DNA of 64,000 nucleotides, taken from the NCBI GenBank assembly GCA_030390025.1, contig JASTWF010000104.1, forward strand, positions 248,001 through 312,000, read 5' to 3'. Below are positions 6,301 through 62,297 of the stretch, one piece after another; within the stretch, counting starts at the first letter, position 1, and each line of letters starts with the position of its first letter. Both the position numbers and the translations under genes were made by a program. The notes beneath the pieces were generated by a model. The model was not told where the DNA came from. It was given only the letters and a program-made list of their open reading frames with translations, and ran no database searches. Source of the DNA: Squalus acanthias. Its lineage: Eukaryota.

Positions 6301-9300
6301 TCCATTATTATATATTATATATAACTGTGGGGTGAGTCAGTACAGGAGGCGGTGCTGTGTGTCCATTATTATATATTATATATAACTGTGGGGTGAGTCA
6401 GTACAGGAGGCGGTGCTGTGTGTCCATTATTATATATTATATATAACTGTGGGGTGAGTCAGTACAGGAGGCGGTGCTGTGTGTCCATTATTATATATTA
6501 TATATAACTGTGGGGTGAGTCAGTACAGGAGGCGGTGCTGTGTGTCCATTATTATATATTATATATAACTGTGGGGTGAGTCAGTACAGGAGGCGGTGCT
6601 GTGTGTCCATTATTATATATTATATATAACTGTGGGGTGAGTCAGTACAGGAGGCGGTGCTGTGTGTCCATTATTATATATTATATATAACTGTGGGGTG
6701 AGTCAGTACAGGAGGCGGTGCTGTGTGTCCATTATTATATATTATATATAACTGTGGGGTGAGTCAGTACAGGAGGCGGTGCTGTGTGTCCATTATTATA
6801 TATTATATATAACTGTGGGGTGAGTCAGTACAGGAGGCGGTGCTGTGTGTCCATTATTATATATTATATATAACTGTGGGGTGAGTCAGTACAGGAGGCG
6901 GTGCTGTGTGTCCATTATTATATATTTATATAACTGTGGGGTGAGTCAGTACAGGAGGCGGTGCTGTGTGTCCATTATTATATATTATATATAACTGTGG
7001 GGTGAGTCAGTACAGGAGGTGGTGCCTGTGTCCATTATTATATGTTATATATAACTGTGGGGTGAGTCAGTACAGGAGGTGGTCCCTGTGTCCATTATTA
7101 TATATTATATATAACTGTGGGGTGAGTCAGTACAGGAGGCGGTGCTGTGTGTCCATTATTATATATTATATATAACTGTGGGGTGAGTCAGTACAGGAGG
7201 TGGTGCTGTGTGTCCATTATTATATATTATATATAACTGTGGGGTGAGTCAGTACAGGAGGCGGTGCTGTGTGTCCATTATTATATATTATATATAACTT
7301 TGAGGTGAGTCAGTACAGGAGGTGGTCCCTGTGTCCATTATTATATATTATATATAACTGTGGGGTGAGTCAGTACAGGAGGCGGTGCTGTGTGTCCATT
7401 ATTATATGTTATATATAACTGTGGGGTGAGTCAGTACAGGAGGCGGTGCTGTGTGTCCATTATTATATATTATATATAACTGTGGGGTGAGTCAGTACAG
7501 GAGGCGGTGCTGTGTGTCCATTATTATATATTATATATAACTGTGGGGTGAGTCAGTACAGGAGGCGGTGCTGTGTGTCCATTATTATATATTATATATA
7601 ACTGTGGGGTGAGTCAGTACAGGAGGCGGTGCTGTGTGTCCATTATTATATATTATATATAACTGTGGGGTGAGTCAGTACAGGAGGCGGTGCTGTGTGT
7701 CCATTATTATATATTATATATAACTGTGGGGTGAGTCAGTACAGGAGGCGGTGCTGTGTGTCCATTATTATATATTTTATAACTGTGGGGTGAGTCAGTA
7801 CAGGAGGCGGTGCTGTGTGTCCATTATTATATATTATATATAACTGTGGGGTGAGTCAGTACAGGAGGTGGTGCCCTGTGTCCATTGTTATATGTTATAT
7901 ATAACTGTGGGGTGAGTCAGTACAGGAGGTGGTCCCTGTGTCCATTATTATATATTATATATAACTGTGGGGTGAGTCAGTACAGGAGGCGGTGCTGTGT
8001 GTCCATTATTATATATTATATATAACTGTGGGGTGAGTCAGTACAGGAGGTGGTGCTGTGTGTCCATTATTATATATTATATATAACTGTGGGGTGAGTC
8101 AGTACAGGAGGCGGTGCTGTGTGTCCATTATTATATATTATATATAACTGTGAGGTGAGTCAGTACAGGAGGTGGTCCCTGTGTCCATTATTATATATTA
8201 TATATAACTGTGGGGTGAGTCAGTACAGGAGGCGGTGCTGTGTGTCCATTATTATATATTATATATAACTGTGGGGTGAGTCAGTACAGGAGGCGGTGCT
8301 GTGTGTCCATTATTATATATTATATATAACTGTGGGGTGAGTCAGTACAGGAGGCGGTGCTGTGTGTCCATTATTATATATTATATATAACTGTGGGGTG
8401 AGTCAGTACAGGAGGTGGTGCTGTGTGTCCATTATTATATATTATATATAACTGTGGGGTGAGTCAGTACAGGAGGCGGTGCTGTGTGTCCATTATTATA
8501 TATTATATATAACTGTGTGGTGAGTCAGTACAGGAGGCGGTGCTGTGTGTCCTTTATTATATATTATATATAACTGTGGGGTGAGTCAGTACAGGAGGCG
8601 GTGCTGTGTGTCCATTATTATATGTAATATATAACTGTGGGGTGAGTCAGTACAGGAGGCGGTGCTGTGTGTCCATTATTATATATTATATATAACTGTG
8701 GGGTGAGTCAGTACAGGAGGCGGTGCTGTGTGTCCATTATTATATATTATATATAACTGTGGGGTGAGTCAGTACAGGAGGCGGTGCTGTGTGTCCATTA
8801 TTATATATTATATATAACTCTGGGGTGAGTCAGTACAGGAGGCGGTGCTGTGTGTCCATTATTATATATTATATATAACTGTGGGGTGAGTCAGTACAGG
8901 AGGTGGTGCTGTGTGTCTATTATTATATATTATATATAACTGTGGGGTGAGTCAGTACAGGAGGTGGTGCTGTGTGTCCATTATTATATATTATTTATAA
9001 CTGTGGGGTGAGTCAGTACAGGACGCGGTGCCGTGTGTCCATTATTATATATTATATATAACTGTGGGGAGTGTCAGTACAGGAGGCGGTGCTGTGTGTC
9101 CATTATTATCTATTATATATAATTGTGGGGTGTGTCAGTACAGGAGGCGGTGCTGTGTGTCCATTATTATATATCATATATAACTGTGGGGTGAGTCAGT
9201 ACAGGAGGCGGTGCTGTGTGTCCATTATTATATATTATATATAACTGTGGGGTGAGTCAGTACAGGAGGCGGTGCTGTGTGTCCATTATTATATATTATA

Positions 9301-11925
9301 TATAACTGTGGGATGAGTCAGTACAGGAGGCGGTGCTGTGTGTCCATTATTATATATTATATATAACTGTGGGGAGTGTCAGTACAGGAGGCGGTGCTGG
9401 GTGTCCATTATTATATATTATATATAACTGTGGGGTGAGTCAGTACAGGAGGTGGTGCTGTGTGTCCATTATTATATATTATATATAACTGTGGGGAGTG
9501 TCAGTACAGGAGGCGGTGCTGGGTGTCCATTATTATATATTATATATAACTGTGGGGTGAGTCAGTACAGGAGGCGGTGCCGTGTGTCCATTATTATATA
9601 TTATATATAACTGTGGGGTGAGTCAGTACAGGAGGCGGTGCTGTGTGTCCATTATTATATGTTATATATAACTGTGGGGTGAGTCAGTACAGGAGGTGGT
9701 GCTGTGTGTCCATTATTATATATTATATATAACTGTGGGGTGAGTCAGTACAGGAGGCGGTGCCGTGTGTCCATTATTATATATTATATATAACTGTGGG
9801 GTGAGTCAGTACAGGAGGCGGTGCCGTGTGTCCATTATTATATATTATATATAACTGTGGGGTGAGTCAGTACAGGAGGCGGTGCTGTGTGTCCATTATT
9901 ATATATTATATATAACTGTGGGGTGTTTCAGTACAGGAGGCGGTGCTGTGTGTCCATTATAATATACTATATATAACTGTGGGGTGAGTCAGTACAGGAG
10001 TCGGTGCTGTGTGTCCATTATTATATATTATATATAACTGTGGGGTGAGTCAGTACAGGAGGCGGTGCTGTGTGTCCATTATTATATATTATATATAACT
10101 GTGGGGTGTTTCAGTACAGGAGGCGGTGCTGTGTGTCCATTATTATATATTATATATAACTGTGGGGTGAGTCAGTACAGGAGGCGGTGCTGTGTGTCCA
10201 TTATTATATATTATATATAACTGTGGGGTGAGTCAGTACAGGAGGTGGTGCCCTGTGTCCATTATTATATATTATATATAACTGTGGGGTGAGTCAGTAC
10301 AGGAGGCGGTGCCCTGTGTCCATTATTATATATTATATATAACTGTGGGGTGAGTCAGTACAGGAGGCGGTGCTGTGTGTCCATTATTATATATTATATA
10401 TAACTGTGGGGTGAGTCAGTACAGGAGGTGGTGCTGTGTGTCCATTATTATATATTATATATAACTGTGGGGTGAGTCAGTACAGGAGGCGGTGCTGTGT
10501 GTCCATTATTATATATTATATATTACTGTGGGGTGAGTCAGTACAGGAGGCGGTGCTGTGTGTCCATTATTATATATAATATATAACTGTGGGGTGAGTC
10601 AGTACAGGAGGCGGTGCTGTGTGTCCATTATTATATATTATATATAACTGTGGGGTGAGTCAGTACAGGAGGCGGTGCTGTGTGTCCATTATTATATATT
10701 ATATATAACTGTGGGGTGAGTCAGTACAGGAGGCGGTGCTGTGTGTCCATTTTTATATATTATATATAACTCTGGGGTGAGTCAGTACAGGAGGCGGTGC
10801 TGTGTGTCCATTATTATATATTATATATAACTGTGGGGTGAGTCAGTACAGGAGGTGGTGCTGTGTGTCCATTATTATATATTATATATAACTGTGGGGT
10901 GAGTCAGTACAGGAGGCGGTGCTGTGTGTCCATTATTATATATTATATATAACTGTGGGGTGAGTCAGTACAGGAGTCGGTGCTGTGTGTCCATTATTAT
11001 ATATTATATATAACTGTGGGGTGAGTCAGTACAGGAGGCGGTGCTGTGTGTCCATTATTATATATTATATATAACTGTGGGGTGTTTCAGTACAGGAGTC
11101 GGTGCTGTGTGTCCATTATTATATATTATATATAACTGTGGGGTGAGTCAGTACAGGAGGCGGTGCTGTGTGTCCATTATTATATATTATATATAACTGT
11201 GGGGTGTTTCAGTACAGGAGGCGGTGCTGTGTGTCCATTATTATATATTATATATAACTGTGGGGTGAGTCAGTACAGGAGGCGGTGCTATGTGTCCATT
11301 ATTATATATTATATATAACTGTAGGGTGAGTCAGTACAGGAGGCGGTGCTGTGTGTCCATTATTATATATTATATATAACTGTGGGGTGAGTCAGTACAG
11401 GAGGCGGTGCTGTGTGTCCATTATTATATATTATATATAACTGTGGGTGAGTCAGTACAGGAGGCGGTGCTGTGTGTCCATTATTATATATTATATATAA
11501 CTGTGGGGTGAGGTCAGTACAGGAGGCGGTGCTGTGTGTCCATTATTATATATTATATATAACTGTGGGGTGAGTCAGTACAGGAGGCGGTGCTGTGTGT
11601 CCATTATTATATATTATATATAACTGTGGGGTGAGTCAGTACAGGAGGCGGTGCTGTGTGTCCATTATTATATATTATATATAACTGTGGGGTGAGTCAG
11701 TACAGGAGGCGGTGCTGTGTGTCCATTATTATATATTATATATAACTGTGGGGTGAGTCAGTACAGGAGGCGGTGCTGTGTGTCCATTATTATATATTAT
11801 ATATAACTGTGGGGTGAGTCAGTACAGGAGGCGGTGCTGTGTGTCCATTATTATATATTATATATAACTGTGGGGTGAGTCAGTACAGGAGGCGGTGCTG
11901 TGTGTCCATTATTATATATTATATA

Positions 11926-13000
11926 AAATAACAACAGAAAACGCTGGAAAAACTCAGCAGGCCAGGCAGCATCCGTGGAGAGAGAAAGAGAGTTAACCTT
12001 TCAGGTCGATGACCATTCGTCAGAACTGTGAAGAGCTGGAAATCAAATAGATTTAAGGCCAGAGTAAAGCTGGGAAAAGGGGGAGGGGATAAAAGAACAA
12101 AGGGGGGATGAAGAGACATTAAGAGACATTAAGAGATATGCAAGGCTAGAGGTGGTGTTAATGTGACAGATTAAGGCTGAAAGAAGTGTGAAATCCACTG
12201 GCAGAATGAAGGACAGCTGCCAGCTTCTAGGAGGGAAAAAAAGGTGGGGGGGGGCAAATAAAAGGGTGGAAAAAGTAAAATATAAATGTGATTGGAGCTG
12301 AGGTTATGATCTAAAATTGTTGAACTCGATATTGAGTCCAGAGGGCTGTAGCGTGCCTAAACGAAAGATGAGGTGCTGTTCCTCGAGCTTACGCTGCGCT
12401 TCCGTGGAACAGTGTAATAGGCCGAGGACGGTGAGGTCAGAGTGGGAGTGAAGCGGTGAATTAAAGTGACAGGCCACCGGGAGCTCGGGGTCCCCCTTAC
12501 GGACTGAACGGAGGTGTTCCGCAAAGCGGTCACCCAATCTGCGTTTGGTCTCCCCAATGTAGAGGAGACCACATCGTGAGCAGCGAATACAGTATACTAA
12601 ATTGCAGGAAGTACAAGTAAATCGCTGTTTCACCTGGAAGGGGTGTTTGGGGCCCTGGACAGTGGGAAGAGGGGAGGTGTAAGGGCATGTGTTGCATCTC
12701 CTGCGCGTGCACGGGAAGGTGCCGGGCGAAGGGGAAGGGGTGCTGGGGGTGGTAGAGGAGTGGACTAGGGTGTCGCGGAGGGAGCGGTCCCTGCGGAATG
12801 CTGAAAGGGGAGGTGAGGGGAAGATGTGTTTGGTGGTGGGATCACGCTGGAGGTGGCGGAAATGGCGGAGGATGATCCGTTGAATGTGGAGGCTGGTGGG
12901 GTGAAAGGTGAGGACAAGGGGAACCCTATCGTGGTTCCGGGAGGGAGGGGCAGGGGTGAGGGTAGAAGTGCGGGAGATAGAACGGACACGGTCGAGGGCC
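11926..13000 (-). mobile_element. 5'-truncated Penelope-like retroelement (Neptune-like), copy 1; GIY-YIG endonuclease ORF 12304-13002, extended to 13107 through the satellite
   Basis: ORF has CxxxxCxxC linker, NLVYCIRCSRCGLLYIGETKRRLGDRFAEH (GIY-YIG core) and LGTLQPSGLN; no RT core; 3' UTR with hammerhead-like motif. Confidence 0.92.
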
Positions 13001-16000
13001 ATAACTGTGGGGTGAGTCAGTACAGGAGGTGGTGCTGTGTGTCCATTATTATATATTATATATAACTGTGGGGTGAGCCAGTACAGGAGGCGGTGCTGTG
13101 TGTCCATTATTATATATTATATATAACTGTGGGGTGAGTCAGTACAGGAGGCGGTGCTGTGTGTCCATTATTATATATTATATATAACTGTGGGGTGAGT
13201 CAGTACAGGAGGCGGTGCTGTGTGTCCATTATTATATATTATATATAACTGTGGGGTGAGTCAGTACAGGAGGCGGTGCTGTGTGTCCATTATTATATAT
13301 TATATATAACTGTGGGGTGAGTCAGTACAGGAGGCGGTGCTGTGTGTCCATTATTATATATTATATATAACTGTGGGGTGAGTCAGTACAGGAGGCGGTG
13401 CTGTGTGTCCATTATTATATATTATATATAACTGTGGGGTGAGTCAGTACAGGAGGCGGTGCTGTGTGTCCATTATTATATATTTTATATAACTGTGGGG
13501 TGAGTCAGTACAGGAGGCGGTGCTGTGTGTCCATTATTATATATTATATATAACTGTGGGGTGAGTCAGTACAGGAGGTGGTGCCCTGTGTCCATTATTA
13601 TATGTTATATATAACTGTGGGGTGAGTCAGTACAGGAGGTGGTGCCTGTGTCCATTATTATATATTATATATAACTGTGGGGTGAGTCAGTACAGGAGGC
13701 GGTGCTGTGTGTCCATTATTATATATTATATATAACTGTGGGGTGAGTCAGTACAGGAGGTGGTGCTGTGTGTCCATTATTATATATTATATATAACTGT
13801 GGGGTGAGTCAGTACAGGAGGCGGTGCTGTGTGTCCATTATTATATATTATATATAACTTTGAGGTGAGTCAGTACAGGAGGTGGTCCTGTGTCCATTAT
13901 TATATATTATATATAACTGTGGGGTGAGTCAGTACAGGAGGCGGTGCTGTGTGTCCATTATTATATATTATATATAACTGTGGGGTGAGTCAGTACAGGA
14001 GGCGGTGCTGTGTGTCCATTATTATATATTATATATAACTGTGGGGTGAGTCAGTACAGGAGGCGGTGCTGTGTGTCCATTATTATATATTATATATAAC
14101 TGTGGGGTGAGTCAGTACAGGAGGCGGTGCTGTGTGTCCATTATTATATATTATATATAACTGTGGGGTGAGTCAGTACAGGAGGCGGTGCTGTGTGTCC
14201 ATTATTATATATTATATATAACTGTGGGGTGAGTCAGTACAGGAGGCGGTGCTGTGTGTCCATTATTATATATTATATATAACTGTGGGGTGAGTCAGTA
14301 CAGGAGGCGGTGCTGTGTGTCCATTATTATATATTATATATAACTGTGGGGTGAGTCAGTACAGGAGGCGGTGCTGTGTGTCCATTATTATATATTATAT
14401 ATAACTGTGGGGTGAGTCAGTACAGGAGGTGGTGCCTGTGTCCATTATTATATATTATATATAACTGTGGGGTGAGTCAGTACAGGAGGCGGTGCTGTGT
14501 GTCCATTATTATATATTATATATAACTGTGGGGTGAGTCAGTACAGGAGGCGGTGCTGTGTGTCCATTATTATATATTATATATAACTGTGGGGTGAGTC
14601 AGTACAGGAGGTGGTGCCTGTGTCCATTATTATATATTATATATAACTGTGGGGTGAGTCAGTACAGGAGGTGGTGCTGTGTCCATTATTATATATTATA
14701 TATAACTGTGGGGTGAGTCAGTACAGGAGGCGGTGCTGTGTGTCCATTATTATATATTATATATAACTGTGGGGTGAGTCAGTACAGGAGGTGGTGCTGT
14801 GTGTCCATTATTATATATTATATATAACTGTGGGGTGAGTCAGTACAGGAGGCGGTGCTGTGTGTCCATTATTATATATTATATATAACTGTGAGGTGAG
14901 TCAGTACAGGAGGCGGTGCCTGTGTCCATTATTATATATTATATATAACTGTGGGGTGAGTCAGTACAGGAGGCGGTGCTGTGTGTCCATTATTATATAT
15001 TATATATAACTGTGGGGTGAGTCAGTACAGGAGGCGGTGCTGTGTGTCCATTATTATATATTATATATAACTGTGGGGTGAGTCAGTACAGGAGGCGGTG
15101 CTGTGTGTCCATTATTATATATTATATATAACTGTGGGGTGAGTCAGTACAGGAGGTGGTGCTGTGTGTCCATTATTATATATTATATATAACTGTGGGG
15201 TGAGTCAGTACAGGAGGCGGTGCTGTGTGTCCATTATTATATATTATATATAACTGTGGGGTGAGTCAGTACAGGAGGCGGTGCTGTGTGTCCATTATTA
15301 TATATTATATATAACTGTGGGGTGAGTCAGTACAGGAGGCGGTGCTGTGTGTCCATTATTATATGTAATATATAACTGTGGGGTGAGTCAGTACAGGAGG
15401 CGGTGCTGTGTGTCCATTATTATATATTATATATAACTGTGGGGTGAGTCAGTACAGGAGGCGGTGCTGTGTGTCCATTATTATATATTATATATAACTG
15501 TGGGGTGAGTCAGTACAGGAGGCGGTGCTGTGTGTCCATTATTATATATTATATATAACTGTGGGGTGAGTCAGTACAGGAGGTGGTGCTGTGTGTCTAT
15601 TATTATATATTATATATAACTGTGGGGTGAGTCAGTACAGGAGGTGGTGCTGTGTGTCCATTATTATATATTATATATAACTGTGGGGTGAGTCAGTACA
15701 GGAGGCGGTGCTGTGTGTCCATTATTATATATTATATATAACTGTGGGGAGTGTCAGTACAGGAGGCGGTGCTGTGTGTCCATTATTATCTATTATATAT
15801 AATTGTGGGGTGTGTCAGTACAGGAGGCGGTGCTGTGTGTCCATTATTATATATTATATATAACTGTGGGGTGAGTCAGTACAGGAGGCGGTGCCGTGTG
15901 TCCATTATTATATATTATATATAACTGTGGGGTGAGTCAGTACAGGAGGCGGTGCTGTGTGTCCATTATTATATGTTATATATAACTGTGGGGTGTTTCA

Positions 16001-19000
16001 GTACAGGAGGCGGTGCTGTGTGTCCATTATAATATATTATATATAACTGTGGGGTGAGTCAGTACAGGAGTCGGTGCTGTGTGTCCATTATTATATATTA
16101 TATATAACTGTGGGGTGAGTCAGTACAGGAGGCGGTGCTGTGTGTCCATTATTATATATTATATATAACTGTGGGGTGTTTCAGTACAGGAGGCGGTGCT
16201 GTGTGTCCATTATTATATATTATATATAACTGTGGGGTGAGTCAGTACAGGAGGCGGTGCTGTGTGTCCATTATTATATATTATATATAACTGTAGGGTG
16301 AGTCAGTACAGGAGGCGGTGCTGTGTGTCCATTATTATATATTATATATAACTGTGGGGTGGGTCAGTACAGGAGGCGGTGCTGTGTGTCCATTATTATA
16401 TATTATATATAACTGTGGGGTGAGTCAGTACAGGAGGCGGTGCTGTGTGTCCATTATTATATATTATATATAACTGTGGGGTGAGTCAGTACAGGAGGCG
16501 GTGCTGTGTGTCCATTATTATATATTATATATAACTGTGGGGTGAGTCAGTACAGGAGGCGGTGCTGTGTGTCCATTATTATATATTATATATAACTGTG
16601 GGGTGAGTCAGTACAGGAGGCGGTGCTGTGTGTCCATTATTATATATTATATATAACTGTGGGGTGAGTCAGTACAGGAGGCGGTGCCTGTGTGTCCATT
16701 ATTATATATTATATATAACTGTGGGGTGAGTCAGTACAGGAGGTGGTGCCTGTGTCCATTATTATATATTATATATAACTGTGGGGTGAGTCAGTACAGG
16801 AGGCGGTGCTGTGTGTCCATTATTATATATTATATATAACTGTGGGGTGAGTCAGTACAGGAGGCGGTGCTGTGTGTCCATTATTATATATTATATATAA
16901 CTGTGGGGTGAGTCAGTACAGGAGGCGGTGCTGTGTGTCCATTATTATATATTATATATAACTGTGGGGTGAGTCAGTACAGGAGGCGGTGCTGTGTGTC
17001 CATTATTATATATTATATATAACTGTGGGGTGAGTCAGTACAGGAGGCGGTGCTGTGTGTCCATTATTATATATTATATATAACTGTGGGGTGAGTCAGT
17101 ACAGGAGGCGGTGCTGTGTGTCCATTATTATATATTATATATAACTGTGGGGTGAGTCAGTACAGGAGGCGGTGCTGTGTGTCCATTATTATATATTATA
17201 TATAACTGTGGGGTGAGTCAGTACAGGAGGCGGTGCTGTGTGTCCATTATTATATATTATATATAACTGTGGGGTGAGTCAGTACAGGAGGTGGTGCTGT
17301 GTGTCCATTATTATATATTATATATAACTGTGGGGTGAGTCAGTACAGGAGGCGGTGCTGTGTGTCCATTATTATATATTATATATAACTGTGGGGTGAG
17401 TCAGTACAGGAGTCGGTGCTGTGTGTCCATTATTATATATTATATATAACTGTGGGGTGAGTCAGTACAGGAGGCGGTGCTGTGTGTCCATTATTATATA
17501 TTATATATAACTGTGGGGTGTTTCAGTACAGGAGTCGGTGCTGTGTGTCCATTATTATATATTATATATAACTGTGGGGTGAGTCAGTACAGGAGGCGGT
17601 GCTGTGTGTCCATTATTATATATTATATATAACTGTGGGGTGTTTCAGTACAGGAGGCGGTGCTGTGTGTCCATTATTATATATTATATATAACTGTGGG
17701 GTGAGTCAGTACAGGAGGCGGTGCTTGTGTCCATTATTATATATTATATATAACTGTGGGTGAGTCAGTACAGGAGGCGGTGCCTGTGTCCATTATTATA
17801 TATTATATATAACTGTGGGGTGTGTCAGTACAGGAGGCGGTGCTGTGTGTCCATTATTATATATTATATATAACTGTGGGGTGAGTCAGTACAGGAGGCG
17901 GTGCTGTGTGTCCATTATTATATATTATATATAACTGTGGGGTGAGTCAGTACAGGAGGCGGTGCTGTGTGTCCATTATTATATATTATATATAACTGTG
18001 GGGTGAGTCAGTACAGGAGGCGGTGCTGTGTGTCCATTATTATATATTATATATAACTGTGGGGTGAGTCAGTACAGGAGGCGGTGCTGTGTGTCCATTA
18101 TTATATATTATATATAACTGTGGGGTGAGTCAGTACAGGAGGCGGTGCTGTGTGTCCATTATTATATATTATATATAACTGTGGGGTGAGTCAGTACAGG
18201 AGGCGGTGCTGTGTGTCCATTATTATATATTATATATAACTGTGGGGTGATTCAGTACAGGAGTCGGTGCTGTGTGTCCATTATTATATATTATATATAA
18301 CTGTGGGGTGAGTCAGTACAGGAGGCGGTGCTGTGTGTCCATTATTATATATTATATATAACTGTGGGGTGTTTCAGTACAGGAGGCGGTGCTGTGTGTC
18401 CATTATTATATATTATATATAACTGTGGGGTGAGTCAGTACAGGAGGCGGTGCTATGTGTCCATTATTATATATTATATATAACTGTAGGGTGAGTCAGT
18501 ACAGGAGGCGGTGCTGTGTGTCCATTATTATATATTATATATAACTGTGGGGTGTGTCAGTACAGGAGGCGGTGCTGTGTGTCCATTATTATATATTATA
18601 TATAACTGTGGGGTGAGTCAGTACAGGAGGCGGTGCTGTGTGTCCATTATTATATATTATATATAACTGTGGGGTGAGTCAGTACAGGAGGCGGTGCTGT
18701 GTGTCCATTATTATATATTATATATAACTGTGGGGTGAGTCAGTACAGGAGGCGGTGCCGTGTGTCCATTATTATATATTATATATAACTGTGGGGTGAG
18801 TCAGTACAGGAGGCGGTGCTGTGTGTCCATTATTATATATTATATATAACTGTGGGGTGAGTCAGTACAGGAGGCGGTGCTGTGTGTCCATTATTATATA
18901 TTATATATAACTGTGGGGTGAGTCAGTACAGGAGGCGGTGCTGTGTGTCCATTATTATATATTATATATAACTGTGGGGTGAGTCAGTACAGGAGGCGGT

Positions 19001-19151
19001 GCTGTGTGTCCATTATTATATATTATATATAACTGTGGGGTGAGTCAGTACAGGAGGTGGTGCTGTGTGTCCATTATTATATATTATATATAACTGTGGG
19101 GTGAGTCAGTACAGGAGGCGGTGCTGTGTGTCCATTATTATATATTATATA

Positions 19152-20226
19152 AAATAACAACAGAAAACGCTGGAAAAACTCAGCAGGCCAGGCAGCATCC
19201 GTGGAGAGAGAAAGAGAGTTAACCTTTCAGGTCGATGACCATTCGTCAGAACTGTGAAGAGCTGGAAATCAAATAGATTTAAGGCCAGAGTAAAGCTGGG
19301 AAAAGGGGGAGGGGATAAAAGAACAAAGGGGGAGATGAAGAGACATTAAGAGACATTAAGAGATATGCAAGGCTAGAGGTGGTGTTAATGTGACAGATTA
19401 AGGCTGAAAGAAGTGTGAAATCCACTGGCAGAATGAAGGACAGCTGCCAGCTTCTAGGAGGGAAAAAAAGGTGGGGGGGGCAAATAAAAGGGTGGAAAAA
19501 GTAAAATATAAATGTGATTGGAGCTGAGGTTATGATCTAAAATTGTTGAACTCGATATTGAGTCCAGAGGGCTGTAGCGTGCCTAAACGAAAGATGAGGT
19601 GCTGTTCCTCGAGCTTACGCTGCGCTTCCGTGGAACAGTGTAATAGGCCGAGGACGGTGAGGTCAGAGTGGGAGTGAAGCGGTGAATTAAAGTGACAGGC
19701 CACCGGGAGCTCGGGGTCCCCCTTACGGACTGAACGGAGGTGTTCCGCAAAGCGGTCACCCAATCTGCGTTTGGTCTCCCCAATGTAGAGGAGACCACAT
19801 CGTGAGCAGCGAATACAGTATACTAAATTGCAGGAAGTACAAGTAAATCGCTGTTTCACCTGGAAGGGGTGTTTGGGGCCCTGGACAGTGGGAAGAGGGG
19901 AGGTGTAAGGGCATGTGTTGCATCTCCTGCGCGTGCACGGGAAGGTGCCGGGCGAAGGGGAAGGGGTGCTGGGGGTGGTAGAGGAGTGGACTAGGGTGTC
20001 GCGGAGGGAGCGGTCCCTGCGGAATGCTGAAAGGGGAGGTGAGGGGAAGATGTGTTTGGTGGTGGGATCACGCTGGAGGTGGCGGAAATGGCGGAGGATG
20101 ATCCGTTGAATGTGGAGGCTGGTGGGGTGAAAGGTGAGGACAAGGGGAACCCTATCGTGGTTCCGGGAGGGAGGGGCAGGGGTGAGGGCAGAAGTGCGGG
20201 AGATAGAACGGACACGGTCGAGGGCC
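19152..20226 (-). mobile_element. Penelope-like element copy 2 (GIY-YIG ORF 19530-20228)
   Basis: Same junctions and near-identical sequence to copy 1. Confidence 0.92.
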
Positions 20227-21996
20227 ATAACTGTGGGGTGAGTCAGTACAGGAGGTGGTGCTGTGTGTCCATTATTATATATTATATATAACTGTGGGGT
20301 GAGTCAGTACAGGAGGCGGTGCTGTGTGTCCATTATTATATGTTATATATAACTGTGGGGTGAGTCAGTACAGGAGGCGGTGCTGTGTGTCCATTATTAT
20401 ATATTATATATAACTGTGGGGTGAGTCAGTACAGGAGGCGGTGCTGTGTGTCCATTATTATATATTATATATAACTGTGGGGTGTGTCAGTACAGGAGGT
20501 GGTGCCGTGTGTCCATTATTATATATTATATATAACTGTGGGGTGAGTCAGTACAGGAGGCGGTGCTGTGTGTCCATTATTATCTATTATATATAATTGT
20601 GGGGTGTGTCAGTACAGGAGGCGGTGCTGTGTGTCCATTATTATATATTATATATAACTGTGGGGTGAGTCAGTACAGGAGGCGGTGCCGTGTGTCCATT
20701 ATTATATATTATATATAACTGTGGGGTGAGTCAGTACAGGAGGCGGTGCCGTGTGTCCATTATTATATATTATATATAACTGTGGGGTGAGTCAGTACAG
20801 GAGGCGGTGCTGTGTGTCCATTATTATATATTATATATAACTGTGGGGTGAGTCAGTACAGGAGGCGGTGCTGTGTGTCCATTAATATATATTATATATA
20901 ACTGTGGGGTGTTTCAGTACAGGAGGCGGTGCTGTGTGTCCATTATTATATATTATATATAACTGTGGGGTGTTTCAGTACAGGAGGCGGTGCTGTGTGT
21001 CCATTATTATATATTATATATAACTGTGGGGTGAGTCAGTACAGGAGGCGGTGCTGTGTGTCCATTATTATATATTATATATAACTGTGGGGTGTTTCAG
21101 TACAGGAGGCGGTGCTGTGTGTCGATTATTATATATTATATATAACTGTGGGGTGAGTCAGTACAGGAGGCGGTGCTATGTGTCCATTATTATATATTAT
21201 ATATAACTGTAGGGTGAGTCAGTACAGGAGGCGGTGCTGTGTGTCCATTATTATATATTATATATAACTGTGGGGTGGGTCAGTACAGGAGGCGGTGCTG
21301 TGTGTCCATTATTATATATTATATATAACTGTGGGGTGAGTCAGTACAGGAGGCGGTGCTGTGTGTCCATTATTATATATTATATATAACTGTGGGGTGA
21401 GTCAGTACAGGAGGCGGTGCTGTGTGTCCATTATTATATATTATATATAACTGTGGGGTGAGTCAGTACAGGAGGCGGTGCTGTGTGTCCATTAATATAT
21501 ATTATATATAACTGTGGGGTGAGTCAGTACAGGAGGCGGTGCCGTGTGTCCATTATTATATATTATATATAACTGTGGGGTGAGTCAGTACAGGAGGTGG
21601 TGCCGTGTGTCCATTATTATATATTATATATAACTGTGGGGTGAGTCAGTACAGGAGGCGGTGCTGTGTGTCCATTATTATATATTATATATAACTGTGG
21701 GGTGAGTCAGTAGAGGAGGTGGTGCTGTGTGTCTATTATTATATATTATATATAACTATGGGGTGAGTCAGTACAGCAGGCGGTGCTGTGTGTCCATTAT
21801 TATATATTATATATAACTGTGGGGTGAGTCAGTAGAGGAGGTGGTGCTGTGTGTCTATTATTATATATTATATATAACTGTGGGATGAGTCAGTACAGGA
21901 GGCGGTGCTGTGTGTCCATTTTTATATATTATATATAACTGTGGGGTGAGTCAGTACAGGAGGCGGTGCTGTGTGTCCATTATTATATATTATATA

Positions 21997-23071
21997 AAAT
22001 AACAACAGAAAACGCTGGAAAAACTCAGCAGGCCAGGCAGCATCCGTGGAGAGAGAAAGAGAGTTAACCTTTCAGGTCGATGACCATTCGTCAGAACTGT
22101 GAAGAGCTGGAAATCAAATAGATTTAAGGCCAGAGTAAAGCTGGGAAAAGGGGGAGGGGATAAAAGAACAAAGGGGGAGATGAAGAGACATTAAGAGACA
22201 TTAAGAGATATGCAAGGCTAGAGGTGGTGTTAATGTGACAGATTAAGGCTGAAAGAAGTGTGAAATCCACTGGCAGAATGAAGGACAGCTGCCAGCTTCT
22301 AGGAGGGAAAAAAAGGTGGGGGGGGCAAATAAAAGGGTGGAAAAAGTAAAATATAAATGTGATTGGAGCTGAGGTTATGATCTAAAATTGTTGAACTCGA
22401 TATTGAGTCCAGAGGGCTGTAGCGTGCCTAAACGAAAGATGAGGTGCTGTTCCTCGAGCTTACGCTGCGCTTCCGTGGAACAGTGTAATAGGCCGAGGAC
22501 GGTGAGGTCAGAGTGGGAGTGAAGCGGTGAATTAAAGTGACAGGCCACCGGGAGCTCGGGGTCCCCCTTACGGACTGAACGGAGGTGTTCCGCAAAGCGG
22601 TCACCCAATCTGCGTTTGGTCTCCCCAATGTAGAGGAGACCACATCGTGAGCAGCGAATACAGTATACTAAATTGCAGGAAGTACAAGTAAATCGCTGTT
22701 TCACCTGGAAGGGGTGTTTGGGGCCCTGGACAGTGGGAAGAGGGGAGGTGTAAGGGCATGTGTTGCATCTCCTGCGCGTGCACGGGAAGGTGCCGGGCGA
22801 AGGGGAAGGGGTGCTGGGGGTGGTAGAGGAGTGGACTAGGGTGTCGCGGAGGGAGCGGTCCCTGCGGAATGCTGAAAGGGGAGGTGAGGGGAAGATGTGT
22901 TTGGTGGTGGGATCACGCTGGAGGTGGCGGAAATGGCGGAGGATGATCCGTTGAATGTGGAGGCTGGTGGGGTGAAAGGTGAGGACAAGGGGAACCCTAT
23001 CGTGGTTCCGGGAGGGAGGGGCAGGGGTGAGGGCAGAAGTGCGGGAGATAGAACGGACACGGTCGAGGGCC
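21997..23071 (-). mobile_element. Penelope-like element copy 3 (GIY-YIG ORF 22375-23073)
   Basis: Same junctions; protein identical to copy 2. Confidence 0.92.
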
Positions 23072-24658
23072 ATAACTGTGGGGTGAGTCAGTACAGGAGG
23101 TGGTGCTGTGTGTCCATTATTATATATTATATATAACTGTGGGGTGAGTCAGTACAGGAGGCGGTGCTGTGTGTCCATTATTATATGTTATATATAACTG
23201 TGGGGTGAGTCAGTACAGGAGGCGGTGCTGTGTGTCCATTATTATATATTATATATAACTGTGGGGTGAGTCAGTACAGGAGGCGGTGCTGTGTGTCCAT
23301 TATTATATATTATATATAACTGTGGGGTGTGTCAGTACAGGAGGTGGTGCCGTGTGTCCATTATTATATATTATATATAACTGTGGGGTGAGTCAGTACA
23401 GGAGGCGGTGCCGTGTGTCCATTATTATATATTATATATAACTGTGGGGTGAGTCAGTACAGGAGGCGGTGCCGTGTGTCCATTATTATATATTATATAT
23501 AACTGTGGGGTGAGTCAGTACAGGAGGCGGTGCTGTGTGTCCATTATTATATATTATATATAACTGTGGGGTGTTTCAGTACAGGAGGCGGTGCTGTGTG
23601 TCCATTATAATATATTATATATAACTGTGGGGTGAGTCAGTACAGGAGTCGGTGCTGTGTGTCCATTATTATATATTATATATAACTGTGGGGTGAGTCA
23701 GTACAGGAGGCGGTGCTGTGTGTCCATTATTATATATTATATATAACTGTGGGGTGTTTCAGTACAGGAGGCGGTGCTGTGTGTCCATTATTATATATTA
23801 TATATAACTGTGGGGTGAGTCAGTACAGGAGGCGGTGCTATGTGTCCATTATTATATATTATATATAACTGTAGGGTGAGTCAGTACAGGAGGCGGTGCT
23901 GTGTGTCCATTATTATATATTATATATAACTGTGGGGTGGGTCAGTACAGGAGGCGGTGCTGTGTGTCCATTATTATATATTATATATAACTGTGGGGTG
24001 AGTCAGTACAGGAGGCGGTGCTGTGTGTCCATTATTATATATTATATATAACTGTGGGGTGAGTCAGTACAGGAGGCGGTGCTGTGTGTCCATTATTATA
24101 TATTATATATAACTGTGGGGTGAGTCAGTACAGGAGGCGGTGCTGTGTGTCCATTAATATATATTATATATAACTGTGGGGTGAGTCAGTACAGGAGGCG
24201 GTGCCGTGTGTCCATTATTATATATTATATATAACTGTGGGGTGAGTCAGTACAGGAGGTGGTGCCGTGTGTCCATTATTATATATTATATATAACTGTG
24301 GGGTGAGTCAGTACAGGAGGCGGTGCTGTGTGTCCATTATTATATATTATATATAACTGTGGGGTGAGTCAGTAGAGGAGGTGGTGCTGTGTGTCTATTA
24401 TTATATATTATATATAACTATGGGGTGAGTCAGTACAGCAGGCGGTGCTGTGTGTCCATTATTATATATTATATATAACTGTGGGGTGAGTCAGTAGAGG
24501 AGGTGGTGCTGTGTGTCTATTATTATATATTATATATAACTGTGGGATGAGTCAGTACAGGAGGCGGTGCTGTGTGTCCATTTTTATATATTATATATAA
24601 CTGTGGGGTGAGTCAGTACAGGAGGCGGTGCTGTGTGTCCATTATTATATATTATATA

Positions 24659-25733
24659 AAATAACAACAGAAAACGCTGGAAAAACTCAGCAGGCCAGGC
24701 AGCATCCGTGGAGAGAGAAAGAGAGTTAACCTTTCAGGTCGATGACCATTCGTCAGAACTGTGAAGAGCTGGAAATCAAATAGATTTAAGGCCAGAGTAA
24801 AGCTGGGAAAAGGGGGAGGGGATAAAAGAACAAAGGGGGAGATGAAGAGACATTAAGAGACATTAAGAGATATGCAAGGCTAGAGGTGGTGTTAATGTGA
24901 CAGATTAAGGCTGAAAGAAGTGTGAAATCCACTGGCAGAATGAAGGACAGCTGCCAGCTTCTAGGAGGGAAAAAAAGGTGGGGGGGGCAAATAAAAGGGT
25001 GGAAAAAGTAAAATATAAATGTGATTGGAGCTGAGGTTATGATCTAAAATTGTTGAACTCGATATTGAGTCCAGAGGGCTGTAGCGTGCCTAAACGAAAG
25101 ATGAGGTGCTGTTCCTCGAGCTTACGCTGCGCTTCCGTGGAACAGTGTAATAGGCCGAGGACGGTGAGGTCAGAGTGGGAGTGAAGCGGTGAATTAAAGT
25201 GACAGGCCACCGGGAGCTCGGGGTCCCCCTTACGGACTGAACGGAGGTGTTCCGCAAAGCGGTCACCCAATCTGCGTTTGGTCTCCCCAATGTAGAGGAG
25301 ACCACATCGTGAGCAGCGAATACAGTATACTAAATTGCAGGAAGTACAAGTAAATCGCTGTTTCACCTGGAAGGGGTGTTTGGGGCCCTGGACAGTGGGA
25401 AGAGGGGAGGTGTAAGGGCATGTGTTGCATCTCCTGCGCGTGCACGGGAAGGTGCCGGGCGAAGGGGAAGGGGTGCTGGGGGTGGTAGAGGAGTGGACTA
25501 GGGTGTCGCGGAGGGAGCGGTCCCTGCGGAATGCTGAAAGGGGAGGTGAGGGGAAGATGTGTTTGGTGGTGGGATCACGCTGGAGGTGGCGGAAATGGCG
25601 GAGGATGATCCGTTGAATGTGGAGGCTGGTGGGGTGAAAGGTGAGGACAAGGGGAACCCTATCGTGGTTCCGGGAGGGAGGGGCAGGGGTGAGGGCAGAA
25701 GTGCGGGAGATAGAACGGACACGGTCGAGGGCC
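24659..25733 (-). mobile_element. Penelope-like element copy 4 (GIY-YIG ORF 25037-25735)
   Basis: Same junctions; protein identical to copies 2 and 3. Confidence 0.92.
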
Positions 25734-26651
25734 ATAACTGTGGGGTGAGTCAGTACAGGAGGTGGTGCTGTGTGTCCATTATTATATATTATATATAACT
25801 GTGGGGTGAGTCAGTACAGGAGGCGGTGCTGTGTGTCCATTATTATATGTTATATATAACTGTGGGGTGAGTCAGTACAGGAGGCGGTGCTGTGTGTCCA
25901 TTATTATATATTATATATAACTGTGGGGTGAGTCAGTACAGGAGGCGGTGCTGTGTGTCCATTATTATATATTATATATAACTGTGGGGTGTGTCAGTAC
26001 AGGAGGTGGTGCCGTGTGTCCATTATTATATATTATATATAACTGTGGGGTGAGTCAGTACAGGAGGCGGTGCCGTGTGTCCATTATTATATATTATATA
26101 TAACTGTGGGGTGAGTCAGTAGAGGAGGTGGTGCTGTGTGTCTATTATTATATATTATATATAACTGTGGGGAGAGTCAGTACAGGAGGCGGTGCTGTGT
26201 GTCCATTATTATATATTATATATAACTATGGGGTGAGTCAGTACAGGAGGCGGTGCTGTGTGTCCATTATTATATATTATATATAACTGTGGGGTGAGTC
26301 AGTAGAGGAGGTGGTGCTGTGTGTCCATTATTATATATATTATATATAACTGTGGGGTGAGTCAGTACAGTAGGCGGTGCTGTATGTCTATTATTATATA
26401 TTATATATAACTGTGGGATGAGTCAGTACAGGAGGCGGTGCTGTGTGTCCATTATTATATATTATATATAACTGTGGGGTGAGTCAGTACAGGAGGTGGT
26501 GCTGTGTGTCCATTATTATATATTATATATAACTGTGGGGTGAGTCAGTACAGGAGGCGGTGCTGTGTGTCCATTATTATATATTATATATAACTGTGGG
26601 GTGAGTCAGTACAGGAGGCGGTGCTGTGTGTCCATTATTATATATTATATA

Positions 26652-27728
26652 AAATAACAACAGAAAACGCTGGAAAAACTCAGCAGGCCAGGCAGCATCC
26701 GTGGAGAGAGAAAGAGAGTTAACGTTTCAGGTCGATGACCATTCGTCAGAACTGTGAAGAGCCGGAAATCAAATAGATTTAAGGCCAGAGTAAAGCTGGG
26801 CAAAGGGGGAGGGGATAAAAGAACAAAGGGGGGGATGAAGAGACATAAAGAGACATTAAGAGATATGCAAGGCTAGAGGTGGTGTTAATGTGACAGATTA
26901 AGGCTGAAAGAAGTGTGAAATCCACTGGCAGAATGAAGGACAGCTGCCAGCTTCTAGGAGGAAAAAAAAGGTGAGGGGGGGGCAAATAAAAGGGTGGAAA
27001 AAATAAAATATAAATGTGATTGGAGCTGAGGTTATGATCTAAAATTGTTGAACTCGATATTGAGTCCAGAGGGCTGTAGCGTGCCTAAACGAAAGATGAG
27101 GTGCTGTTCCTCGAGCTTACGCTGCGCTTCCGTGGAACAGTGTAATAGGCCGAGGACGGTGAGGTCAGAGTGGGAGTGAAGCGGTGAATTAAAGTGACAG
27201 GCCACCGGGAGCTCGGGGTCCCCCTTACGGACTGAACGGAGGTGTTCCGCAAAGCGGTCACCCAATCTGCGTTTGGTCTCCCCAATGTAGAGGAGACCAC
27301 ATCGTGAGCAGCGAATACAGTATACTAAATTGCAGGAAGTACAAGTAAATCGCTGTTTCACCTGGAAGGGGTGTTTGGGGCCCTGGACAGTGGGAAGAGG
27401 GGAGCTGTAAGGGCATGTGTTGCATCTCCTGCGCGTGCACGGGAAGGTGCCGGGCGAAGGGGAAGGGGTGCTGGGGGTGGTAGAGGAGTGGACTAGGGTG
27501 TCGCGGAGGGAGCGGTCCCTGCGGAATGCTGAAAGGGGAGGTGAGGGGAAGATGTGTTTGGTGGTGGGATCACGCTGGAGGTGGCGGAAATGGCGGAGGA
27601 TGATCCGTTGAATGTGGAGGCTGGTGGGATGAAAGGTGAGGACAAGGGGAACCCTATCGTGGTTCCGGGAGGGAGGGGCAGGGGTGAGGGTAGAAGTGCG
27701 GGAGATAGAACGGACACGGTCGAGGGCC
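26652..27728 (-). mobile_element. Penelope-like element copy 5 (GIY-YIG ORF 27032-27835)
   Basis: Same junctions; several SNPs shared with copy 6. Confidence 0.92.
26717..26753 (-). ncRNA. Minimal type I hammerhead ribozyme motif in Penelope 3' region (intact form)
   Basis: Minus strand AGTT-CTGACGA-ATGGTC-ATC-GACCT-GAAA-CGTT-AACT: CUGAnGA and GAAA core boxes, GGTC/GACC stem II, palindromic AACGTT stem III, AGTT/AACT stem I. Confidence 0.75.
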
Positions 27729-28705
27729 ATAACTGTGGGGTGAGTCAGTACAGGAGGTGGTGCTGTGTGTCCATTATTATATATTATATATAACTGTGGG
27801 GTGAGCCAGTACAGGAGGCGGTGCTGTGTGTCCATTATTATATATTATATATAACTGTGAGGTGAGTCAGTACAGGAGGCGGTGCTGTGTGTCCATTATT
27901 ATATATTATATATAACTGTGGGGTGAGTCAGTACAGGAGGCGGTGCTGTGTGTCCATTATTATATATTATATATAACTGTGGGGTGAGTCAGTACAGGAG
28001 GCGGTGCTGTGTGTCCATTATTATATATTATATATAACTGTGGGGTGAGTCAGTACAGGAGGCGGTGCTGTGTGTCCATTATTATATATTATATATAACT
28101 GTGGGGTGAGTCAGTACAGGAGGCGGTGCTGTGTGTCCATTATTATATATTATATATAACTGTGGGGTGAGTCAGTACAGGAGGCGGTGCTGTGTGTCCA
28201 TTATTATATATTTTATATAACTGTGGGGTGAGTCAGTACAGGAGGCGGTGCTGTGTGTCCATTATTATATATTATATATAACTGTGGGGTGAGTCAGTAC
28301 AGGAGGCGGTGCTGTGTGTCCATTATTATATATTATATATAACTGTGGGGTGAGTCAGTACAGGAGGCGGTGCTGTGTGTCCATTATTATATATTATATA
28401 TAACTGTGGGGTGAGTCAGCACAGGAGGCGGTGCTGTGTGTCCATTATTATATATTATATATAACTGTGGGGTGAGTCAGTACAGGAGGCGGTGCTGTGT
28501 GTCCATTATTATATATTATATATAACTGTGGGGTGAGTCAGTACAGGAGGCGGTGCTGTGTGTCCATTATTATATATTATATATAACTGTGGGGTGAGTC
28601 AGTACAGGAGGCGGTGCTGTGTGTCTATTATTATATATTATATATAACTGTGGGGTGAGTCAGTACAGGAGGCGGTGCTGTGTGTCCATTATTATATATT
28701 ATATA

Positions 28706-29782
28706 AAATAACAACAGAAAACGCTGGAAAAACTCAGCAGGCCAGGCAGCATCCGTGGAGAGAGAAAGAGAGTTAACGTTTCAGGTCGATGACCATTCGT
28801 CAGAACTGTGAAGAGCCGGAAATCAAATAGATTTAAGGCCAGAGTAAAGCTGGGCAAAGGGGGAGGGGATAAAAGAACAAAGGGGGGGATGAAGAGACAT
28901 TAAGAGACATTAAGAGATATGCAAGGCTCGAGGTGGTGTTAATGTGACAGATTAAGGCTGAAAGAAGTGTGAAATCCACTGGCAGAATGAAGGACAGCTG
29001 CCAGCTTCTAGGAGGAAAAAAAAGGTGAGGGGGGGGCAAATAAAAGGGTGGAAAAAATAAAATATAAATGTGATTGGAGCTGAGGTTATGATCTAAAATT
29101 GTTGAACTCGATATTGAGTCCAGAGGGCTGTAGCGTGCCTGAACGAAAGATGAGGTGCTGTTCCTCGAGCTTACGCTGCGCTTCCGTGGAACAGTGTAAT
29201 AGGCCGAGGACGGTGAGGTCAGAGTGGGAGTGAAGCGGTGAATTAAAGTGACAGGCCACCGGGAGCTCGGGGTCCCCCTTACGGACTGAACGGAGGTGTT
29301 CCGCAAAGCGGTCACCCAATCTGCGTTTGGTCTCCCCAATGTAGAGGAGACCACATCGTGAGCAGCGAATACAGTATACTAAATTGCAGGAAGTACAAGT
29401 AAATCGCTGTTTCACCTGGAAGGGGTGTTTGGGGCCCTGGACAGTGGGAAGAGGGGAGCTGTAAGGGCATGTGTTGCATCTCCTGCGCGTGCACGGGAAG
29501 GTGCCGGGCGAAGGGGAAGGGGTGCTGGGGGTGGTAGAGGAGTGGACTAGGGTGTCGCGGAGGGAGCGGTCCCTGCGGAATGCTGAAAGGGGAGGTGAGG
29601 GGAAGATGTGTTTGGTGGTGGGATCACGCTGGAGGTGGCGGAAATGGCGGAGGATGATCCGTTGAATTTGGAGGCTGGTGGGATGAAAGGTGAGGACAAG
29701 GGGAACCCTATCGTGGTTCCGGGAGGGAGGGGCAGGGGTGAGGGTAGAAGTGCGGGAGATAGAACGGACACGGTCGAGGGCC
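28706..29782 (-). mobile_element. Penelope-like element copy 6 (GIY-YIG ORF 29086-29889)
   Basis: Same junctions; two private amino-acid changes (H>Q, L>S). Confidence 0.92.
28771..28807 (-). ncRNA. Minimal type I hammerhead ribozyme motif (intact form)
   Basis: Same motif as 26717-26753; copies 1-4 carry GAAAGGTT instead of GAAACGTT. Confidence 0.75.
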
Positions 29783-31231
29783 ATAACTGTGGGGTGAGTC
29801 AGTACAGGAGGTGGTGCTGTGTGTCCATTATTATATATTATATATAACTGTGGGGTGAGCCAGTACAGGAGGCGGTGCTGTGTGTCCATTATTATATATT
29901 ATATATAACTGTGAGGTGAGTCAGTACAGGAGGCGGTGCTGTGTGTCCATTATTATATATTATATATAACTGTGGGGTGAGTCAGTACAGGAGGCGGTGC
30001 CGTGTATCCATTATTATATATTATATATAACTGTGGGGTGAGTCAGTACAGGAGGCGGTGCTGTGTGTCCATTATTATATATTATATATAACTGTGGGGT
30101 GAGTCAGTACAGGAGGCGGTGCTGTGTGTCCATTATTATATATTATATATAACTGTGGGGTGAGTCAGTACAGGAGGCGGTGCTGTGTGTCCATTATTAT
30201 ATATTATATATAACTGTGGGGTGAGTCAGTACAGGAGGCGGTGCTGTGTGTCCATTATTATATATTATATATAACTGTGGGGTGAGTCAGTACAGGAGGT
30301 GGTGCTGTGTGTCCATTATAATATATTATATATAACTGTGGGGTGAGTCAGTACAGGAGGCGGTGCTGTGTGTCCATTATTATATATTATATATAACTGT
30401 GGGGTGAGTCAGTACAGGAGGCGGTGCTGTGTGTCCATTATTATATATTATGTATAACTGTGGGGTGAGTCAGTACAGGAGGCGGTGCTGTGTGTCCATT
30501 ATTATATATTATATATAACTGTGGGGTGAGTCAGTACAGGAGGCGGTGCTGTGTGTCCATTATTATATATTATATATAACTGTGGGGTGAGTCATTACAG
30601 GAGGCGGTGCTGTGTGTCCATTATTATATATTATATATAACTGTGGGGTGAGTCAGTACAGGAGGCGGTGCCTGTGTCCATTATTATATATTATATATAA
30701 CTGTGGGGTGAGTCAGTACAGGAGGTGGTGCTGTGTGTCCATTATTATATATTATATATAACTGTGGGGAGTGTCAGTACAGGAGGCGGTGCCCTGTGTC
30801 CATTATTATATATTATATATAACTGTGGGGAGTGTCAGTACAGGAGGCGGTGCCCTGTGTCCATTATTATATATTATATATAACTGTGGGGTGAGTCAGT
30901 ACAGGAGGCGGTGCCGTGTGTCCATTATTATATATTATATATAACTGTGGGGTGAGTCAGTACAGGAGGCGGTGCCGTGTGTCCATTATTATATATTATA
31001 TATAACTGTGGGGTGAGTCAGTACAGGAGGCGGTGCTGTGTGTCCATTATTATATATTATATATAACTGTGGGGTGAGTCAGTACAGGAGGCGGTGCTGT
31101 GTGTCCATTATTATATATTTTATATTACTGTGGGGTGAGTCAGTATAGGAGGCGGTGCCGTGTGTCCATTATTATATATTCTATATAACTGTGGGTTGAG
31201 TCAGTACAGGAGGTGGTGCTGTGTGTATCGA

Positions 31232-31259
31232 GGTTTTTGTAAGGCTCTGTCTCACTGTG
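31232..31259 (-). other. Recombination signal sequence, 12-bp spacer (12-RSS)
   Basis: Minus strand CACAGTG + AGACAGAGCCTT (12 nt) + ACAAAAACC, consensus heptamer and nonamer directly after the V exon. Confidence 0.98.
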
Positions 31260-31557
31260 TAAGGGCTGCTATAAGCATTCTGACAGTAATAGTCTGCCAC
31301 ATCCTCACTCTGCACATTGCTGATGGTCAGGGTGAACGTGTTGGACTGTTGACTGCCGGTGAAACGCTCCGAGGTTCCTGTGAAACGAGTTGTTGCAGCA
31401 TAGATCAGGAGAGAGGGTTTCTGGCCGGCTTTCTGCTGGTACCAAGCAAGGTAGCTGCTAATGGATGAGCTGGCGGTACAGGTGATGGTCGCGGTCTGTC
31501 CCTGACTCACTGACAGCACCGGGGGAGACTGGGTCATGATGATGTCCCCACTGATAC
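31260..31557 (-). CDS. IGKV: Ig light-chain V exon, kappa / shark NS4 (type III)-like, germline unrearranged
   Basis: [99 protein letters not shown]; conserved Cys, WYQQ and YYC; pyrimidine tract and AG acceptor; 12-RSS as in kappa. Confidence 0.95.
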
Positions 31558-31742
31558 CTGGGGGAAATAGAGAAAGAAAGTGAAGTAAGCACTGTCACAG
31601 AAAGACGCTGTAAAATGAGATATTGCTCGAGACAGTGACCATTCCTCTAGTTTCAGCATTTTCCCATCAATCACAAGTCAGTAGAATTGGACAGAAATCG
31701 ACAGCAGGGAGATATTAAACGTGGAAGGAGAGAGATTCGTAC

Positions 31743-31791
31743 CTGCGACGCAGAATGCCAGAGACCAGATCAGCTGGACGGGTGAAATCAT
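31743..31791 (-). CDS. IGKV: Leader exon of the Ig V gene (MISPVQLIWSLAFCVA-G)
   Basis: ATG at 31791, hydrophobic signal peptide, phase-1 GT donor, 185-bp intron to the V exon. Confidence 0.93.
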
Positions 31792-61730: not shown

Positions 61731-61779
61731 ATGATTTCACCCGTCCAGCTGATCTGGCCTCTGGCATTCTGCGTCGCAG
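61731..61779 (+). CDS. IGKV: Leader exon of the Ig V gene (MISPVQLIWPLAFCVA-G)
   Basis: ACCATG context, signal peptide, phase-1 GT donor at 61780, 186-bp intron. Confidence 0.93.
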
Positions 61780-62292: not shown

Positions 62293-62297
62293 TCAAT

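Follow-up and report, generated by a model that had tools for sequence, protein, structure and literature searches.

A Penelope-like nuclease fragment present in six copies within a 61-bp tandem array behind an immunoglobulin V gene of Squalus acanthias

A 64,000-nucleotide stretch of the Squalus acanthias genome (contig JASTWF010000104.1 of assembly GCA_030390025.1, positions 248,001 to 312,000; here called the window) contains a tandem array of a 61-bp monomer, situated beside an immunoglobulin (Ig) V gene, that is interrupted six times by the same 5'-truncated piece of a Penelope-like element (PLE). Each piece carries an open reading frame (ORF) of 232 amino acids (aa) that starts at its junction with the array and encodes a putative GIY-YIG nuclease. 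Our reading of this arrangement, to which we give a probability of about 0.86, is that a dead-on-arrival Penelope-like fragment was copied passively by turnover of the array. We numbered the copies c1 to c6 by rising coordinate; the array and its inserts are as follows (positions in the window).

663..31226, minus strand: 61-bp tandem array, resolved into 394 monomers that deviate from the modal unit by a mean of 1.8%
11926..13000, minus strand: copy c1 of the 5'-truncated PLE, with the 232-aa ORF (13002-12304), a 3' untranslated region (UTR) and a hammerhead-like motif
19152..20226, minus strand: copy c2, ORF 20228-19530; identical to c3 and c4
21997..23071, minus strand: copy c3, ORF 23073-22375
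24659..25733, minus strand: copy c4, ORF 25735-25037
26652..27728, minus strand: copy c5, ORF 27730-27032
28706..29782, minus strand: copy c6, ORF 29784-29086
28745..28815, minus strand: minimal hammerhead-like motif of the 3' pseudo-long terminal repeat (pseudo-LTR) in c6, recognized by eye as CUGA..GA, a 4-bp stem II and GAAA

All six inserts are on the minus strand, are 1,075-1,077 bp long, and have 5' and 3' junctions that are identical to the base. Pairs of copies differ by 0-12 substitutions, with c2, c3 and c4 being the same over their whole length. Each insert interrupts the same variant of the monomer, which without the insert is one base longer than a normal monomer, and the target-site duplication (TSD) is 1 bp at most. 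The preliminary description of this DNA had proposed that one 5'-truncated insertion was amplified with the satellite and that it has no clear TSD, and the shared junctions, the shared host monomer and the extra sequence of no more than 1 bp agree with both proposals.

The c4-c3 and c3-c2 intervals have in common a block of 14 rare monomer variants, which indicates that c2, c3 and c4 moved as DNA together with their flanks. The array also duplicates where no insert lies: rare variants in its 184 insert-free distal monomers form collinear chains of up to 9, a length that none of 300 shuffles reached (mean 2.7, maximum 5). Across the whole array there are six duplicated blocks, five of them without an insert, compared to a mean of 1.4 and a maximum of 5 in shuffles; our conclusion about duplication relies on the chain-length test and not on this block count. 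Copy c1 is probably a mosaic, one part being of the c5/c6 type and another of the c2-c4 type. It matches c5 and c6 in the flank upstream and in one derived ORF allele, the remainder of its body is as in c2-c4, and the putative exchange point is ~39 to 101 bases into the insert. The mosaic reading depends on the base that follows the GAAA of the hammerhead-like motif, at which c1-c4 differ from c6, being derived in c1-c4. We treat it as derived partly because no variant row at 28778 appears among the family variants listed, and partly in view of what we take to be the hammerhead core.

The open frames are no more than chance predicts. All six junction ATGs (at 13002, 20228, 23073, 25735, 27730 and 29784) open a 232-aa frame, as was noted earlier for a protein consisting of a linker, a zinc finger and a GIY-YIG domain, and catalytic residues are present in each. 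Five ORF sites vary among the copies, with four nonsynonymous changes and one synonymous change; the neutral expectation is ~74% nonsynonymous. Copy c2 has the family allele at all five sites, and more than 95% of the family depth differs from c6 at them (run X1), so these substitutions postdate the insertion. Copy c6 has four private amino acid changes relative to the family, one of which is within the conserved FRLGTL motif. Only ~3% of possible substitutions create a stop codon, and the probability of finding no stop after five substitutions is 0.86; an intact founder and only five ORF substitutions since then account for the open frames. We saw no sign of purifying selection on the frame lacking reverse transcriptase (RT), given the 4:1 ratio among five changes (low power). 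The remaining 27 ORF family variants comprise 8 nonsynonymous and 19 synonymous ones (among the variants listed, 41 of 60), a pattern that looks like the mark of selection on active master copies, and the comparison of 4:1 to 8:19 gives P = 0.053 by Fisher's test. The fallback explanation that had been offered from the start, in which recent amplification alone accounts for the open frames, is the one that the 4:1 ratio and the probability of escaping a stop favor.

The insert is, by its sequence, the 3' third of an ordinary PLE of the Neptune/Nematis type. It consists, in order, of the end of the RT thumb, a CX4CxxC linker, a GIY-YIG nuclease, a 3' UTR and the hammerhead-like motif. The 232 residues align with the C-terminal part of RT-bearing homologues, behind the RT of the longer ones (19 matches), and are 64-69% identical to the four best shark and ray proteins. 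Residues Y137, Y148, G150, R159, H163 and E208 and a GLN motif are present in the frame, the roles of the six residues being presumably those of their I-TevI counterparts. Two cysteines (C141 and C144) are inside the nuclease core, with H179 and H185 downstream as what we take to be the histidine pair that binds zinc. The catalytic and zinc-binding residues are kept in all six copies. The Pfam GIY-YIG match has an E-value of 1.6e-4 and a score of 22.4 bits, slightly below the cut-off of 22.6. In a fold search with the predicted structure no match reached E = 0.001, and the best was the catalytic domain of I-TevI (PDB 1ln0; E = 2.0e-3, root-mean-square deviation 2.1 A over 95 columns, template-modelling score 0.79 by target length), a phage homing endonuclease that is 18% identical to the 232-aa nuclease. 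The RT core is absent from all six copies as a result of the 5' truncation. The homologues P0009, P0014, P0019 and P0001 have the RT upstream of the part that aligns, and beyond the junction the reading frame carries on in family contigs. The six copies are fragments, not autonomous members of the family.

The zinc linker of the insert (C98-X4-C103-X2-C106) has the CX2-5CxxC pattern that, in the account of Neptune and Nematis elements in PMC8557442, marks these elements and is tied to a (TA)n target bias, frequent 5' truncation and unclear TSDs. With those endonuclease-bearing elements, as far as that account describes them, the insert shares a C-terminal GIY-YIG domain with core cysteines and an upstream linker, as well as the 5' truncation, a (TA)-rich target without a clear TSD, and, by eye, a 3' hammerhead-like motif. 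It differs from them in having no RT core, no 5' pseudo-LTR, no tandem or inverted partner copy and no 30-nt tail. Poseidon PAc of Anolis carolinensis and the Penelope nuclease of Drosophila virilis, in the sections of PMC11167929 that cover them, likewise combine GIY-YIG, a bias towards AT-rich DNA and a pseudo-LTR hammerhead, and their internal RT start gives an optional tail, which we count as a further likeness. As described in those sections, the Penelope/Poseidon clade is without the zinc-finger linker, and nuclease activity is demonstrated there whereas here the nuclease is a predicted one. The class of the hammerhead-like motif was taken from PMC4209133; the motif folds no better than shuffles (z = 0.88 and 0.10), and Rfam gave no match to it at E <= 5. 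Two other classes were considered and excluded. Naiad elements have an N-terminal endonuclease followed by RT and lack a hammerhead, whereas here the endonuclease ends at a stop codon and UTR and the RT is N-terminal in homologues. An array of non-LTR retrozymes, defined in the relevant part of bioRxiv 10.64898/2026.07.22.740005 by a hammerhead in every tandem unit, does not fit a 61-bp monomer without a hammerhead and a motif confined to the six inserts.

The family to which the insert belongs is very abundant: 47,848, 41,566, 6,326 and 2,251 contigs matched it in four runs. The summed depth over the ORF (~0.6-2.6 million in run X1) is not a copy number and we did not use it as one. At position 28706 the family contigs split into unrelated flanks (127 contigs, agreement 0.41, run X1). 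In run X6 the family shows a 30-nt extension at its 3' end, which the six copies are without and which fits the optional tail described in part of PMC11167929.

Under passive copying, a full-length family member would have made a nick in a single 61-bp monomer, within its AT-rich run, and started target-primed reverse transcription of its own RNA from a usual 3' end, halting after ~1,075 nt. This would have left a dead-on-arrival fragment comprising the RT thumb end, zinc-finger linker, nuclease, 3' UTR and hammerhead-like motif, and an in-frame ATG would have arisen once by chance, at or just after insertion. The array would have kept duplicating blocks by unequal exchange or conversion, with the blocks that bore the insert giving rise to six copies, and the protein would have had no part in the expansion. 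A preprint (bioRxiv 10.64898/2026.09.17.752431) reports, in the part that concerns us, the copying of transposable elements inside satellites by host recombination, read as one integration followed by copying–for example, five Gypsy copies in Anoplius nigerrimus, 11 long interspersed elements (LINEs) in Porphyrio hochstetteri and six retroviruses in Cervus elaphus. As those cases are described there, they resemble ours in that several nearly identical copies lie on one strand and have their junctions in common. Unlike them, our case involves a Penelope-like fragment whose nuclease frame is open, in a 30-kb repeat that lies behind an Ig V gene and not at a centromere.

Several observations weigh against passive copying. 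The difference between the 4:1 and 8:19 ratios is not significant, five substitutions give little power, and the family ratio has 41 of 60 variant rows behind it. Changes are rarer in the ORF (5 in 697 bases) than in the UTR (8 in 379; P = 0.075), and the ORF has no indels compared to three indel columns in the UTR, though the latter are in homopolymers. The structure predicted for the frame is an intact GIY-YIG fold (predicted local distance difference test score 90) with all catalytic residues present. The number of duplicated blocks is by itself a weak control, and duplications at a distance from inserts would also be expected of a nuclease that acts in trans. The junction ATG has a G (a purine) at -3 and a G at +4. 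Finally, transcription directed by the last TATA-like word would start downstream of the nearest upstream ATG but still ahead of the one at the junction, if the distance from TATA to start is what we assume it to be.

Three other explanations have to be weighed. It is improbable that some of the copies arose by retrotransposition, in which full-length family proteins acting in trans would have copied a read-through RNA, containing upstream monomers and the insert and having the family's normal 3' end, into a further monomer at the identical base. At its 3' side the insert stops at a common end of the family, every monomer offers the same target, and c1, c5 and c6 have upstream monomer variants in common, with flanks that for c1, c2 and c6 are largely uninformative downstream. 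However, rare variants flanking the insert on either side are common to c3 and c4, in a block spanning 14 markers, the downstream flank of c5 is like that of c3 and c4, and all six copies agree to the base at the 3' junction; duplication of DNA is sufficient by itself. Just as improbable is that part of the copy number, namely the identical c2, c3 and c4, is an assembly artefact of this repeat-rich region: their identity over the entire length speaks for it, but the intervals between them differ, both in length (25 versus 28 monomers) and in their variant monomers, and each of c1, c5 and c6 has changes of its own.

The third explanation, slightly less probable again, is that the cassette is expressed, either from TATA-like and AP-1-like words of the satellite or by read-through from the V promoter, and that the RT-less nuclease nicks AT-rich monomers, raising unequal repair and expanding itself together with the array. 

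In the consensus of ten run X5 contigs extending past 29782, the native family codon at the junction is ACG, in the frame V-D-T-A-L-D. The A of the junction is compatible with both satellite and element, and the T would have come either from duplication of 1 bp of the target or from a C>T transition at the CpG within the element's native codon, either of which would explain the extra base. There is thus an ATG at the junction, as first described, but the statement that its AT came from the satellite and its G from the element is not the sole reading, since the native ACG shares the A and the T may be CpG-derived. The ATG arose once, before the amplification. Assuming a cut after AT, 8 of the 289 truncation points upstream of the zinc linker (2.8%) would give an in-frame ATG. 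Homologues carry a native methionine ~16 codons further upstream of the junction position, so slightly longer fragments need no junction for a start. Among 93 homologues of near length, 16 start with methionine, lack the RT core and span the linker to the C-terminus in an alignment-based count; these are gene predictions, a few of them chimeric, and are not evidence of expression. Methionine-started RT-less fragments are common by-products of gene modelling.

The sequence upstream of the junction ATG has a promoter-like geometry that, going by the motifs, would allow expression of the frame. TATA-like words at -62, -60 and -53 and TGACTCA at -17 are present in all six copies, which confirms that the ORF is downstream of TATA-like and AP-1-containing units, though these words are part of the ordinary monomer and are not specific to the junction. 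Besides an AT-rich run and TGACTCA, the 61-bp unit has its own ATG, and upstream ATGs consequently recur every 61 bases. The satellite ATG at -105 reads in frame into the ORF in c1, c5 and c6, where a stop codon is lost through a monomer variant, and this gives 267 aa. The geometry, the good start context, the predicted fold and the catalytic and zinc-binding residues kept in all copies are points in favor of an expressed nuclease. So are the preference of PLE nucleases for AT-rich DNA and the cleavage of DNA by the isolated D. virilis Penelope nuclease domain, both reported in the sections of PMC11167929 on nuclease activity, and the size of the array (~30 kb) compared to the V-J interval of ~500 bp given for nurse shark NS4 genes in the portion of PMC2193156 that treats them.

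Against it are the lack of any sign of purifying selection, the duplications found without inserts, and the existence of an insert-free array of at least 27 monomers behind a paralogous V gene. Every monomer puts ATGs upstream of the junction, and neither AATAAA nor ATTAAA occurs in the UTR and next 200 downstream bases of c2. The D. virilis nuclease, in the recognition experiments of PMC11167929, needed the 30-40-bp 'tail' of its element, whereas the 30-nt extension of our family seen in run X6 is absent here. The same nuclease would in any case already be supplied by full-length family members. The earlier suggestion that an expressed nuclease nicks its own array and drives its expansion is accordingly unsupported rather than refuted, in view of the 4:1 ratio, the change in FRLGTL and the duplications among the 184 insert-free monomers. 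We regard as equally remote the idea of a satellite with its own engine, in which a captured Penelope nuclease without RT would draw its promoter words and start codon from the monomer, nick the monomers and expand the array lying between V and J. Were the nuclease expressed and the driver of expansion, the satellite would be one that amplifies itself by a nuclease of its own, a kind of case of which we found no example among the open-licence papers searched. Of the 20 sequencing runs, from 7 studies, that contain matching sequence, none is recorded as RNA. None of the pieces and loose ends listed for runs X1, X5, X6 and X9 bridges the satellite-insert junction, which is uninformative on its presence or expression with more than 98,000 pieces and 1,724 loose ends beyond those listed. 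Six independent insertions are ruled out, because the 5' truncation is the same to the base in all copies.

If it was copied passively, the fragment neatly illustrates, on a small scale, two known processes: the insertion of a 5'-truncated PLE into AT-rich repeats, and the multiplication of an insert as its array turns over. As dated markers, the six copies can serve to follow the growth of the 30-kb repeat behind the V gene. They also call for caution, because nuclease frames that are open and start with methionine are to be expected as a by-product in shark genomes.

The array is flanked by one of two V genes in the window.

31232..31791, minus strand: Ig light-chain V gene with leader, intron and V exon (V-set E = 4.6e-19), a recombination signal sequence (RSS) with a 12-bp spacer at 31259, and a leader ATG near 31791
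61731..64000, plus strand: paralogous V gene with its own 61-bp array, RSS at 62265, and 27 monomers to the window end, with no insert

The array begins directly behind the 12-bp-spacer RSS of the first V gene, and the six ORFs are in the same sense as this upstream gene, as had been pointed out, both being on the minus strand. About 30.5 kb of the 61-bp repeat thus follows straight after a V RSS (663-31259, minus strand). The array of the paralogous gene reaches the window end and so has at least 27 monomers. The two V genes are head to head ~30 kb apart, each followed by a 61-bp array, and the regions upstream of them form an inverted duplication (31937-38232 versus 55432-61271) with 88-98% identity by block. 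No J-type RSS was found in the 64-kb window. If J lies beyond base 1, the V-J interval would be more than 60-fold longer than in NS4, and the array, together with its six inserts, would be removed on rearrangement. Variant monomers at 17758 (minus strand) and 62629 (plus strand) come near to a 23-bp-spacer RSS, with one heptamer and two nonamer mismatches, and CACAG words occur throughout the 61-bp monomer. Run X9, which we guess to be RNA, has contigs of the 61-bp monomer (29793-29845, depth 523-1,022) and of the element.

The V upstream regions contain further minisatellites with units of 40, 58, 32 and 27 bp (32710-33042, 37659-38290, 38396-39105, 39683-40333 and 53083-53844), which are partly mirrored in the inverted duplicate. 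Elsewhere in the window, a 629-aa open frame at 41341-43230 (minus strand) matches RVT_1 (E = 1.4e-37) and resembles what we take to be a fragment of a CR1-type LINE ORF2. A retrovirus-like stretch at 46311-51403 (plus strand) has a gag-like frame with a zinc knuckle and a short protease-like piece, with no clear RT frame, together with a 444-aa envelope-like frame that has no Pfam match.

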